Source: a virus
Taxonomy: Duplodnaviria; Heunggongvirae; Uroviricota; Caudoviricetes
DNA length: 7,067 nt
Strand: one strand, 5' to 3'
Virus record (IMG/VR): IMGVR_UViG_3300029070_000030
The notes under the pieces were generated by a model that saw only the letters and a list, made by a program, of their open reading frames with translations, was not told where the DNA came from and did no database searches. Of the stretch, positions 1,230 to 7,067 are shown piece by piece; position 1 is the stretch's first letter; each line of letters opens with the position of its first letter. The position numbers and the translations under genes were made by a program.

Positions 1230-1509
1230 GCGTCCTGTCTCCCCGGTCTTTCTGCTGGGCGAGAAAATCGCGGCACAGGCCTTTGGCTTTCAGCTCATTC
1301 AGCACAAAATCAATATCTTCATTCAGGTAGCTGAAAATATGCGGAATGTAGAGCTGATGCAGGCCGGAGAGTTCACGGTGAATCAAATCACCCCCAACAA
1401 ACTGGGATACGGCGCTGGCGCGGTTGAGCTTATGGTAAGCCTCAATGCTGAGGTGTTCACGGGCGTCATGACGCGCTGAGACGGTCTGAGGGGCTTTTTT
1501 ATTACGCAC
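1222..1509 (-). CDS. eps: Epsilon-like protein (helper-prophage derepression factor of P4 family); 95 aa if initiated at GTG 1509
   Basis: C-terminal part of the 175-aa track ORF 1222..1749. GGAGG (minus-strand sense) lies 6 nt upstream of GTG 1509, giving [30 protein letters not shown]...DRTHV (95 aa). Alternative in-frame ATGs are at 1554 and 1590. The full 1749 start is unlikely because that stretch overlaps another long ORF and is Cys/Pro/Leu-rich. Position upstream of orf151 matches P4 eps. Start codon uncertain. Confidence 0.5.
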
Positions 1510-1837
1510 GGGACACCTCCACCACCGGCAGACGGGCAGCAAGGGAGAGCACATAGTCACGGACAAGGGAACGGCGGGCGCTGCGTTCATCACCGGCGAC
1601 GGTGCGAAGCATACAGATACGGGGATGACGGTCTGCGCGACGGACAGCCGCAAACACAAAGACAAATTCAGGGTGTGAAGGGGTAAGGGTCGTAGCCATA
1701 AGGCAACCTCCGATAACAGCGTAAATGACGCTATCGCCGGAGTTTCCACGCTCGATGGCGATAGCCCAGACGGGGGTGGAAATACCGGCGTTATCGGAAA
1801 CCGGCCAGCCCGGAGGCTGCCCCGCCTGAGCTACCAT
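1502..1837 (-). CDS. Hypothetical protein upstream of eps (111 aa from ATG 1837; may extend to ATG 2101, 199 aa)
   Basis: Part of the 214-aa track ORF 1502..2146. The C-terminal 111 codons ([31 protein letters not shown]...LPVVEVSRA) look protein-like, and the stop TAA 1504-1502 abuts the eps GTG. An upstream in-frame ATGATGATG (2101-2093) overlaps the vis stop, which would give 199 aa, but that N-terminal stretch has odd composition and a lower-GC, palindrome-rich template. No recognisable motif. Low confidence. Confidence 0.3.
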
Positions 1838-2097
1838 TGACTCTGCGGTATAATGAGCGGACGCGGGCAGAATGCACGGAGTGCCATTTGCTCGACTGAC
1901 CACACACCACACCATAATCTGGCGCTCTGTGGCGTTGATTGCGACACAAAAAAAGACGCATGGCGCGTCATATGTCGCCGATAACATACTCGGGTTTCCA
2001 CGCCCGGCTGCCGATTTTGCGGCAGCGGAAAAACTATATCCGCAAATGCCGGAAAAAGGCAAGCCAGAAAAAGGGACTTTTTGCAGAACAGGCATCA

Positions 2098-2484: not shown

Positions 2485-2642
2485 ATGGCTGTGTGTTTTT
2501 TGTACATCAGCGCCAGATAGCTTTAAAACGCTCTGGAAGGAGCTGGAAAAAATTATAGTGAAATACAAATTGTTTTTTCTTATTTATTTCAGTGAATTAA
2601 TAAAAATAAAAAGTAATAAACAGCACAAAAAGCCCATCAACG

Positions 2643-2747
2643 GGTGAACAGTGGTGAACAGACGGTGAACAGTCATTACTGCGATTGTTCACCCTTTAAC
2701 TTACTGTATTACTTATCTTTTTTCTTATGGTGAACAGAGGTGAACAG
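2643..2747. repeat. Iteron cluster: five direct copies of GGTGAACAG plus one inverted TGTTCACC; P4 alpha-binding type-I iteron (TGTTCACC), ori/crr-like
   Basis: GGTGAACAG at 2643-2651, 2653-2661, 2664-2672, 2729-2737 and 2739-2747; inverted TGTTCACC at 2686-2693; embedded in an AT-rich tract (2560-2760). The octamer is the reverse complement of the P4 type-I iteron bound by alpha (from memory of the P4 literature). Confidence 0.7.
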
Positions 2748-2825
2748 TAAAATATAAAAAAACAAACAGTAAGCCGGTTTTTCCTGCGACCTTTTCCTGG
2801 CTTGCCGGTCTGAGGATGAGTCTCC

Positions 2826-4543: not shown

Positions 4544-4643
4544 GCATGCGTTTTCCCGCCTCATTTCCTGCAGATTACGCCGCGCCCGACGCGGCGTGAG
4601 CGTGTCAGTGCAACTGCATTAAAACCGCCCCGCAAAGCGGGCG

Positions 4644-4662
4644 GGCGAGGCGGGGAAAGCAC
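4644..4662. other. cos site: 19-nt P2/P4-type cohesive-end sequence GGCGAGGCGGGGAAAGCAC
   Basis: Exact match at 4644-4662 to the conserved 19-nt cohesive end shared by P2, 186 and P4 (recalled from the literature). It lies between psu and int, where cos sits in P4, and is flanked by GC-rich dyads (4578-4596 and ~4625-4644). Confidence 0.8.
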
Positions 4663-4687
4663 TGCGCGCGAATGGATGATTTTCAAT

Positions 4688-5644
4688 TTAAATGCCAAGC
4701 AATAATTTTTTCTTGAAGTAGCTTTCAAAGCTATCCTTATCACCATTGAATACACCCATCAACTCATCAGAGTTTATTATTATATTCATTATTTCTCTTA
4801 AATAATTATCAAGTTTAATGCTTTCCTCTGGTAGTTTTCCAACTTTAGATGATTTTAAACTGTCACCATGAGTAACTTTAGAGCGAATGTTATAGAATGA
4901 CTTTATTTCATCAAATGTAGTGATAGGATCAAAGTTATATGGTTTTAAGAAAATAGCGACCCGCTCAGAAAGTTTATGAGAAAGTTCAGAGCTATCTGTT
5001 GAGAATAAGCTCTCAAGTGCGCTGCAGTAGTGAGATATTTTCATTGCGGGATCGAAATCTCGCTTTGCTGATCTTATAAAACTCAATGCCCTTCCATAGC
5101 GAGAATATTTTGAATCAACAAAAGAATCAAAAATAGTAGAGTTATTATTATATAGGTGAGTTTGAACTCGATGGTTTATATCTGCCCACTTAGTTAAGTC
5201 ACTCCTGTTAAATTCAACATCAATATGGCGATAACCGCTTGCCATCGTAAATAAACTTAATAGACTATTGTTCGACCATTCAGAATATGCTTTGCGATCA
5301 GTTTTATTGCAATATGCAATTTCGCAAAGCATGCCATTATCCTTGATAAACCAAGAAGTATTTATAAGCATATCTATCCACAAAAGCCAAGTCGTCAATG
5401 CAAAATTGCTTTTTGTAGACGGCTGAAAAAAATCATCTTTAAGATCGGCAAAAATTATGTGATTTGCATTGTATAAATGTTCATATTCAATGATACCAGT
5501 AAAAGGCTTAATATCTTTGTTAATTATTTTTCTAATTTTTGCCCTATCTCTTATTAGAGTAACTCCGGGAAGGAGGTCAAAATCATCGAAATTATCCCCT
5601 ATAACATTCATAAATCTTAATGTTGTGTAGAATTTAAAGTGCAT
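4688..5644 (-). CDS. Hypothetical protein, 318 aa, AT-rich hotspot cargo; function unknown (candidate anti-phage defence / abortive-infection protein)
   Basis: 318-aa ORF with no internal stops in strongly AT-rich DNA that contrasts sharply with the GC-rich P4 backbone. GGAG lies 7 nt upstream of ATG 5644, and the start overlaps the last codons of int. Located between cos and int, the variable hotspot of P4-like satellites. I recognise no family; the only motif noted is a possible Rx4H (R254...H259, NIRSKVTHGD), which is weak. Confidence 0.8.
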   Translation of the reverse strand: MHFKFYTTLRFMNVIGDNFDDFDLLPGVTLIRDRAKIRKIINKDIKPFTGIIEYEHLYNANHIIFADLKDDFFQPSTKSNFALTTWLLWIDMLINTSWFIKDNGMLCEIAYCNKTDRKAYSEWSNNSLLSLFTMASGYRHIDVEFNRSDLTKWADINHRVQTHLYNNNSTIFDSFVDSKYSRYGRALSFIRSAKRDFDPAMKISHYCSALESLFSTDSSELSHKLSERVAIFLKPYNFDPITTFDEIKSFYNIRSKVTHGDSLKSSKVGKLPEESIKLDNYLREIMNIIINSDELMGVFNGDKDSFESYFKKKLLLGI

Positions 5645-6992: not shown

Positions 6993-7067
6993 TGGCGGAA
7001 GATCACAGGAGTCGAACCTGCCCGGGACCGCTGGCGGCCCCAACTGGATTTGAAGTCCAGCCGCCTC
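6993..7067 (-). tRNA. selC: tRNA-Sec (selC), 3' 75 nt including CCA; 5' ~20 nt lie beyond the window end
   Basis: Reverse complement of 6993-7067 reads GAGGCGGCTGGACTTCAAATCCAGTTGGGGCCGCCAGCGGTCCCGGGCAGGTTCGACTCCTGTGATCTTCCGCCA, which matches my recollection of positions 21-95 of E. coli selC (anticodon loop CTTCAAATC with UCA, long variable arm, T-arm GGTTCGACTCC, 3' CCA). Confidence 0.9.

Follow-up and report, generated by a model that had tools for sequence, protein, structure and literature searches.

The immunity region of the satellite phage P4 has been a textbook case since the 1990s of a single DNA stretch which serves as promoter, antisense RNA gene, RNA target site and translated reading frame. 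In P4, the CI RNA arises by processing of a primary transcript that is not translated, and pairs with the sequence seqA, located upstream, and the sequence seqC, located downstream, which leads to premature transcription termination (Hershko-Shalev et al., PMC4825925). As summarized by Mageeney et al. (PMC10111431) from Forti et al. (1999), the constitutive promoter of P4 is internal to the gene eta, the transcript starting from this promoter (PLE) is soon terminated, owing to interactions of the RNA at CI and seqA, and gives rise to CI by processing, Kil represents a truncated Eta that is translated upon occasional read-through, and full-length Eta is only made when the upstream late promoter fires.

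Related RNAs have been described from other systems, with IsrK and C4 being structural homologs of seqA and CI RNA of P4 (Barquist et al., PMC3632133). In the immI operon of P1 and P7 (c4, icd, ant), the c4 antisense RNA falls into the Rfam family and clan (C4, c4-a1b1) to which the locus analyzed in this study also belongs, and it shares with this locus the two-box logic, in which one target overlaps with the ribosome-binding site preceding an Icd-like gene. Heteroimmunity between P1 and P7 rests on few compensatory bases that set the specificity, and the main described effect of P1 c4 is a translation block of icd-ant (PMC12197685). In contrast, the outcome described for the P4 type is premature transcription termination, and the P4 region is embedded in the eta frame (PMC4825925; PMC10111431). 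For IsrK, encoded in the Salmonella Gifsy-1 prophage, an action in trans has been reported, by which translation of its own read-through transcript is activated. The similarity of the present locus to IsrK concerns the first 78 nt of its leader, comprising two hairpins and a terminator, which match the corresponding Rfam model.

A further P4-like satellite, the retronphage phiR73, is located at selC and is reportedly heteroimmune to P4. The basis of this heteroimmunity is a change of specificity by few compensatory bases. phiR73 resembles the locus examined here in its P4-like organization, its position beside tRNA-Sec, its short Delta protein, its CI-type immunity and in having a specificity unlike that of P4.

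Setting of the Interval in a P4-Type Satellite Prophage

The window, a stretch of 7,067 nt from the IMG/VR virus record IMGVR_UViG_3300029070_000030 (Caudoviricetes), is a P4-family satellite prophage integrated at selC. Its minus strand carries a DUF5375 gene, orf151, eps (Pfam Derepression), the immunity interval and vis (AlpA family), its plus strand carries sid, the gene of an 81-aa Ogr/Delta protein and psu, and a tyrosine integrase gene adjoining the 3′ part of tRNA-Sec is found at the window end. Between psu and int, a 318-aa HEPN-annotated gene is present and not a retron, which distinguishes the window from phiR73. The tRNA-Sec was found by Rfam, whereas ARAGORN detected no tRNA in the window, because only the 3′ part of the tRNA is contained therein. 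The immunity interval lies between vis and eps on the strand of the left operon, and the gene order matches the P4 annotation, with the succession of vis, interval, eps, orf151 and DUF5375 being common to the window and P4. The two elements differ in their integration site, as P4 integrates at leuX, and in the length of Delta, which comprises 166 aa in P4.

Positions 1400-2500 of the window are 95.4% identical to positions 8066-9166 of the P4 genome (NC_001609) over the full length and without any indel, and full-query matches in the searched collections were restricted to P4 records. The P4 immunity region (PLE, seqA, t1, cI, seqC, kil/eta) is located at ~8168-8767 of NC_001609 and its elements map one to one onto the window, where the coordinate equals the P4 coordinate minus 6666 (1480-2120). 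A first-pass annotation, made from the sequence alone, had suggested that the interval is equivalent to the P4 immunity region and that an alignment of the two would be a suitable check. The alignment, together with three Rfam families, a promoter-like site and covarying pairings between CI and its targets (see below), supports this earlier reading as essentially right. We consequently read the interval as a P4-type satellite RNA immunity region in which the RNA is embedded in the eta frame and whose recognition sequences differ from those of P4, and assign to this reading a probability of roughly 0.93.

The same sequence is found as an identical copy at selC of E. coli WY517-2 (NZ_CP076259.1). 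Similar DNA is present at 1,235 places in 1,039 of 5,426 complete E. coli genomes, with an identity of at least 99% in 95 genomes. The RefSeq record with the identical sequence contains one 199-aa CDS in this interval, labelled as 'Icd-like protein', and is devoid of an ncRNA annotation.

RNA Elements on the Minus Strand

Rfam searches yielded three families on the minus strand of the interval with scores above their gathering scores, namely C4, isrK and c4-a1b1 (Table 1). A relaxed Rfam search of 1480-2120 returned no separate seqC family, and on the plus strand it returned nothing credible, the sole match being NiCo with 13 bits and an E-value of 8.8. Two plus-strand ORFs, 1872-2153 and 1939-2247, were rejected as genes, as they match no family and run opposite to the conserved RNA elements on the other strand.

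Table 1. Features of the immunity interval and its borders (window coordinates).
Feature	Position	Strand	Basis and remarks
vis	2364-2098	−	Pfam Phage_AlpA match
eta (P4 orf199), 199 codons	1502..2101	−	contains promoter-like site, seqA, terminator, cI, seqC and kil
Promoter-like site TTGCCT-18-TATAGT	2033..2062	−	sigma-70-like scan
c4-a1b1 (RF03163)	2039-1987	−	51.5 bits (gathering score 46.7)
seqA, first CI RNA target (a1b1)	1987..2039	−	c4-a1b1 and isrK models, fold, covariation
isrK (RF01394)	2026-1949	−	74.7 bits (gathering score 50), E = 4e-15
seqA hairpin 1 (CTGCCG dyad)	2026-2007	−	fold
seqA hairpin 2	2006-1991	−	box a1 in loop
Box a1, GUGGAAA	2001-1995	−	loop of seqA hairpin 2
Box b1, GUUAUCGG	1985-1978	−	just beyond the Rfam c4-a1b1 match
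Intrinsic terminator GACGC-GCCAU-GCGUC, then U7	1948..1969	−	terminator scan; 3′ hairpin of the isrK model
C4 antisense RNA (RF01695)	1841-1754	−	77.9 bits (gathering score 45), model positions 1-87 of 87
cI gene, CI antisense RNA precursor (C4 family)	1754..1841	−	Rfam C4, fold, stems in relatives
Box b′, CCGAUAAC	1797-1790	−	loop of the second CI hairpin
Box a′, UUUCCAC	1782-1776	−	single-stranded segment after the second CI hairpin
seqC, second CI target	1707..1749	−	exact complementarity to CI boxes, covariation, fold
Box a2, GUGGAAA	1749-1743	−	
Box b2, GUUAUCGGA	1717-1709	−	overlaps the kil Shine-Dalgarno sequence
kil, 65 aa, Icd-like host cell division inhibitor	1502..1699	−	nested within eta, in the same frame and at its 3′ terminus
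eps	1512-1222	−	Pfam Derepression match

The promoter-like site is the only sigma-70-like site found in 1450-2650, is identical in P4, and ends 7 nt upstream of the start of the isrK match. By its position, it corresponds to the constitutive early promoter PLE of P4, which is internal to eta, and the leader transcript would start near 2026, where the isrK model begins. The first 82 nt of the leader fold into hairpin 1, hairpin 2 and the terminator hairpin, the latter followed by seven U (1954-1948, minus strand). This terminator, which we take to be the t1 of the P4 literature, is situated between PLE and cI; the efficiency of t1 reportedly depends on the CI RNA and seqA, and t1 is said to autoregulate CI. 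The sites of CI-dependent premature termination in P4 are t1, t4 and timm, and the only terminator visible by scan in the window was the canonical intrinsic one. Across 1500-1700, the plus strand contains more G than C. The kil RNA is hence rich in C and poor in G, a composition compatible with a Rho loading site.

The gene of the CI RNA is located ~150 nt downstream of the dyads belonging to seqA and the terminator. The CI precursor folds with a minimum free energy of −47.2 kcal/mol (z = −5.1) into a long closing stem around two hairpins, an architecture that is kept in relatives, and the fold leaves an unpaired GCCA tail after the closing stem, a sequence hint of processing. In P4, the leader transcript is processed to a small RNA that is stable, with RNase P acting at the 5′ end. 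The region of seqC also shows a pronounced fold (1690-1760, z = −3.1). A Shine-Dalgarno sequence for kil, GGAGG, is found at 1711-1707, 8 nt upstream of the kil ATG, and since box b2 overlaps this sequence, CI pairing would also occlude the ribosome-binding site of kil.

The first-pass annotation had pointed to a lower GC content at ~1900-2100 and to several short dyads, and had placed a possible regulatory RNA at ~1840-2100. The GC content is indeed 0.51-0.53 at 1900-2100 vs. 0.63-0.65 at 1750-1900. The dyad CTGCCG-N6-CGGCAG is located exactly at 2008-2025, as described there, with a stem extending to 7 bp at 2007-2026, and CATATG is found at 1969-1974. The second dyad, GACGC-N5-GCGTC, is likewise present, but at 1955-1969 and thus shifted by 3 nt from the 1958-1972 originally given. 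Both dyads are real, yet they constitute the seqA hairpin and the terminator and not the CI RNA; similarly, the kind of region was correctly recognized, but the antisense RNA gene itself at 1754-1841 falls partly outside the proposed stretch. As bare patterns, the dyads are not significant, with 2 terminator-like sites in the scan vs. 1.6 expected from shuffles. They gain significance as parts of conserved RNA families (isrK, c4-a1b1, C4) and by their conservation in related satellites, which was checked and showed that both dyads are kept.

Pairing and Covariation in Relatives

Relatives were collected with a 23-mer seed from CI hairpin 1, which yielded 74 IMG/VR loci and 8 GTDB loci, the latter including Erwinia, Pantoea, Hafnia and Cupriavidus. 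Seven of the 8 GTDB loci have a C4 match and six an isrK match, with one locus (L007) matching C4 only and another one (L006) matching neither; L006, which is without any Rfam match and does not align, was rejected as a homolog. Both CI boxes have exact complements at fixed positions, a1 and b1 upstream as well as a2 and b2 downstream, in ~54 of 61 distinct sequences. In the window, these complements are exact, 7-9 nt long and at the same kind of fixed positions. Among the relatives, there are also loci with a mismatched seqA (L036, L079) and loci that are decayed (L035, L045, L029).

Pair counts were made on an alignment of 45 distinct leaders from IMG/VR and GTDB. Compensatory changes, in which both sides differ, were found in five of seven pairs for a1-a′ and likewise for a′-a2 (97.5% of cells being standard pairs in both cases), in six of eight pairs for b1-b′ (97.7%), and in five of nine pairs for b′-b2 (98.9%). 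When the 3′ partners were slid by 1-3 columns as a control, just 35-52% of cells paired, and column shuffling never gave a covariation score as high as the observed one. The sequence of the window itself had served to derive the structure, a procedure that favours the unslid version; the double changes at sites up to ~220 nt apart are, however, too many to be explained by this bias. Within the CI RNA, helices 6-9 are 98-100% paired across the 45 leaders, the closing stem contributing 4 compensatory pairs, and the terminator is kept in relatives with 2 compensatory pairs. The invariance of CI hairpin 1 reflects its use as search seed. Among close relatives, variation is concentrated on the six boxes, where the entropy amounts to 0.58-0.79 bits vs. 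0.09-0.17 bits in the scaffold of seqA and CI outside the boxes.

Predicted Specificity of Immunity in Comparison With P4

Most leader substitutions between the window and P4 are located in or beside the six boxes and are compensatory across seqA, CI and seqC. Box a reads GUGAGAA/UUCUCAC in P4 and GUGGAAA/UUUCCAC in the window, at a1, a′ and a2, and box b reads UUCACAGG(A)/(U)CCUGUGAA in P4 and GUUAUCGG(A)/(U)CCGAUAAC in the window, at b1, b′ and b2. Homoimmunity with P4 would be indicated by identical or cross-pairing boxes, whereas both boxes were found to differ at all three sites. Due to these coordinated changes in all six boxes, the window is predicted to be heteroimmune to P4. Predicted duplex energies for the window CI on its own targets were −20.4 kcal/mol (seqA) and −22.8 kcal/mol (seqC), compared with −5.4 and −7.8 kcal/mol for the window CI on the P4 targets and −6.9 and −9.1 kcal/mol for the P4 CI on the window targets. 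On these thermodynamic grounds, the window and P4 are predicted to possess orthogonal immunities. The a boxes alone are just one mismatch plus one wobble apart between the window and P4. For types sharing one box, intermediate duplex energies were predicted, and partial cross-reactivity of the window type with such types is predicted.

The Eta Frame and Alternative Explanations

A single long ORF spans the interval, as had been recognized before, and comprises 214 codons when starting from the ATG at 2146 or 199 codons when starting from the ATG at 2101, with its end at 1502. The latter ATG (2101-2099) is the first ATG within ATGATGATG (minus strand), correctly reported at 2101-2093, and overlaps the TGA of vis (2100-2098); P4 has the same 214/199-codon ORF and the same arrangement. 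The ATG of kil at 1699 is in frame with eta, the stop codon at 1504-1502 is common to both, and the end of kil overlaps the GTG start of eps at 1509. The window fits the published account of eta and kil point by point, and the identity of kil is taken from that paper (PMC10111431). Kil matches NCBIfam NF033153 (Icd-like) with 76.1 bits against a cut-off of 25, and within the 199-aa ORF this match spans just aa 146-193. In kil, 18 sites vary among close relatives and 12 of them are third codon positions, and the Kil protein is conserved in Erwinia- and Pantoea-type loci. The eta-only part, i.e., the 134 codons upstream of kil, displayed no codon periodicity: the entropy of the spacer amounts to 0.39, 0.38, and 0.42 bits for codon positions 1-3, and the variable sites among close relatives, which are few, number just 2, 2, and 5 at the same positions. 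Of the whole frame, only kil looks like a protein under selection.

It could be argued from the missing periodicity that the 134 codons upstream of kil are never translated, with the open frame being a by-product of a GC-rich, strongly conserved RNA. The comparison of E. coli-type with Erwinia/Pantoea-type loci points in the same direction, as amino-acid conservation does not extend beyond those parts of the ORF that coincide with seqA, the terminator, CI and seqC, and the spacer cannot be aligned as protein between the divergent groups. Nevertheless, the indels between terminator and cI, with lengths of 9, 21, 45, 63, and 84 nt, are without exception multiples of 3, and the frame remains open across them, also in the divergent group with the 45-nt deletion, whose spacer retains only ~45-53% nucleotide identity. 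Nearly all of 64 distinct relatives keep the eta frame open. Of the 61 E. coli-type sequences in which kil could serve as anchor, 60 have no interruption between at least −272 and the kil stop, and an ATG overlapping the vis stop recurs in E. coli-type loci as well as in L022 and L051. Since translation of eta has, moreover, been reported for P4 (PMC10111431, citing Forti et al., 1999), we consider a purely RNA-coding origin of the frame unlikely. We rather infer that it is the RNA sequence together with an uninterrupted frame which is selected upstream of kil, and not an N-terminal domain of Eta. As the eta-only part lacks a codon-position bias, it is the conservation of the frame and the analogy with P4 that argue for translation of eta in the window. 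The opposite explanation, that the interval is simply the gene of a 199-aa Ash/Icd-like protein in which the dyads have no meaning of their own, can draw on the RefSeq annotation of one CDS and no RNA, on the Icd-like match at the C-terminus, and on a match to Pfam Phage_ASH (PF10554) with 83.8 bits covering aa 37-161 of the 214-aa form. Protein homology over the full ORF, which the first-pass annotation had held to speak against an RNA, is thereby nominally present. This does not refute the RNA reading, as the stretch matched by Phage_ASH is the one occupied by the RNA elements and carries no codon-position signal: it corresponds to 2038-1664 of the window, beginning at the −10 element of the leader promoter, covering seqA, the terminator, CI and seqC, and ending just past the kil start, without an excess of third-position variation, which is limited to the Kil part. 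The Pfam 'Ash' family appears to represent, for the most part, conserved RNA elements in translated form. Three independent Rfam covariance models above their gathering scores, 21 compensatory pairs between sites up to ~220 nt apart, which protein constraint does not predict, and the fact that the immunity factor of P4 is an RNA (PMC3632133; PMC4825925) leave next to no likelihood for an interval that is only protein-coding. Of the two options named in the first-pass annotation, a structured RNA rather than a protein or as well as a protein, 'as well as' was hence the correct choice, given the eta ORF with kil nested in it.

An immunity region that is homologous to that of P4 might also have lost its function in a defective prophage. 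Signs of such decay do occur among the relatives, in which seqA is mismatched to the CI boxes (L036, L079), b boxes lack cognate targets (L035, L045), the frame is broken (L045), or the U-run contains a 1-nt insertion (L029). In the window, in contrast, the six boxes are perfectly cognate, the promoter and the terminator are intact, as are the CI stems, kil and the eta frame, the neighbouring P4 genes retain their full length, and the same allele recurs in the 95 complete E. coli genomes mentioned above. It is therefore highly improbable that the window contains a mere remnant.

Proposed Mode of Action

As a P4-type immunity region, the interval is likely to operate in the following way, with RNA processing, termination and the translation of eta and kil being modelled on the work on P4. 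The putative PLE would act constitutively and start a leader near 2026, on which seqA (a1, b1), the intrinsic terminator, cI and seqC (a2, b2) follow each other, seqC lying over the ribosome-binding site of kil. Processing of this leader transcript would yield the CI RNA, a small and stable member of the C4 family, whose box b′ in a hairpin loop and box a′ in a single strand are expected to pair with a1/b1 and a2/b2 on nascent leaders. Such pairing would result in premature termination and in blocked translation of kil, and by blocking the leader it would keep eps, orf151 and alpha (replication, helper derepression) off in the lysogen. Eta would be translatable only from transcripts of the upstream late promoter, and ribosomes crossing the region might render these transcripts insensitive to immunity. 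The P4-type leader is not known to act as a trans-activator in the manner of IsrK.

Allele Diversity and Significance

Among the 61 distinct sequences, at least 17 CI types can be distinguished, in which ~10 alleles of the loop box (b) are combined with ~5 alleles of the single-strand box (a). The type of the window combines the b allele CCGAUAAC with the a allele UUUCCAC. Each of the four common b alleles occurs with two or three a alleles, so that 9 of 12 possible combinations are represented, and each allele is needed at three sites which are interleaved in the order a1, b1, b′, a′, a2, b2. We are somewhat inclined to conclude from this pattern that P4-family satellites carry a combinatorial two-box RNA immunity code. 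If this holds true, the code implies diversifying selection on satellite-satellite exclusion together with a mechanism of reassortment or concerted change, and the loci with a mismatched seqA, L036 and L079, may be snapshots of intermediates of a box change.

The system as such is already known, as the analysis re-identifies the experimentally characterized immunity region of P4, and the combinatorial picture of the alleles may be the only part that goes beyond the literature. Recognition of the region in the window matters mainly for annotation, since the identical RefSeq sequence is labelled as a protein without any RNA gene. The allele survey, in turn, offers a ready-made set of natural antisense-target pairs that are probably orthogonal. 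Neither the annotation point nor the survey will come as a surprise to specialists. The survey also raises the testable question of how immunity types relate to the co-residence of satellites. Co-resident types could be compared in just two genomes of the IMG/VR sample, too few for a conclusion: in one of them, the two loci (L013 and L049) differ in both boxes, and in the other one they (L055 and L059) are of the same type.

The leader and its match to an annotated protein family

The ORF that holds all leader RNA elements, in its 214-aa form, matches the Pfam family Phage_ASH (PF10554) over amino acids 37-161, corresponding to positions 2038-1664 on the minus strand of the window. This match coincides precisely with the stretch encoding the leader RNA elements. 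RefSeq carries no ncRNA annotation there; it lists such ORFs under the name "Icd-like protein" or under "ash family protein". The Phage_ASH family may largely represent the translation of a conserved RNA.

Within the E. coli-type sequences of alignment A2, which comprises 45 distinct leaders, the a boxes (a1, a′, and a2) have three common alleles, one for each possible placement of a single A among two G residues in the core GU(GAG/GGA/AGG)AA; these alleles therefore differ pairwise at exactly two positions. Several of the related loci collected with the CI hairpin 1 seed contain mismatched boxes or broken frames. In locus L036 (8601-8941) seqA is mismatched to its own CI RNA in both boxes, and in L079 (3706-4046) in box b; the b boxes of L035 and L045 are without cognate targets. 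Furthermore, the eta frame is broken in L045 and is shifted in L029 by a 1-nt insertion in the U-run of the terminator. These five loci may represent intermediates of recombination or copies in decay.

Organization of the remaining element

The features located outside of the leader RNA elements are compiled in the table below.

Positions of further features of the satellite element
Feature	Window position	Strand	Context or basis
Overlap of eps GTG start and kil-eta end (GTGCGTAA)	1502-1509	-	Sequence; P4 annotation
Cluster of GGTGAACAG repeats, both orientations	2640-2760		Within AT-rich stretch, GC 0.24-0.38
GC-rich inverted repeats, e.g., CGCCGCGCCCGACGCGGCG and CCGCCCCGCAAAGCGGGCGGGCGAGGCGGGG	4555-4680		3′ of psu, immediately ahead of low-GC cargo gene
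318-aa ORF	4688-5644	-	Low-GC segment, psu/int interval
tRNA-Sec (selC), 3′ part	6997-7067	-	Window end, adjoins integrase

In addition to the overlap at the start of eps, the stop codon of vis is overlapped by the ATG of eta (ATGA). Judged from the sequence, these two overlaps suggest a chain of translational coupling, which would lead from vis via eta/kil to eps. The GGTGAACAG repeat cluster corresponds to the type 1 repeats of the replication origin in the P4 annotation.

The tRNA-Sec gene was identified with an Rfam score of 51.5 bits and is truncated at its 5′ end, because of which ARAGORN made no tRNA-Sec call at this site. At the identical RefSeq locus (E. coli WY517-2), a full-length tRNA-Sec gene is annotated. 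selC is the attachment site of phiR73, whereas the one of P4 is leuX.

The psu-int interval is described in PMC9122126 as an anti-phage hotspot position in P4-like satellites. The 318-aa ORF found in this interval carries the RefSeq name "HEPN domain-containing protein" and yielded no match in PADLOC, Pfam, or NCBIfam; it is a candidate for an uncharacterized defense gene. The inverted repeats next to it are possibly terminators or REP-like elements. In a genome with an element identical to the one in the window (L085), a gene annotated as "TIR domain-containing anti-phage reverse transcriptase" is located directly beyond the alpha (primase-helicase) gene (L085 1-1194, outside the window), and its placement suggests a second cargo or defense position in this satellite.
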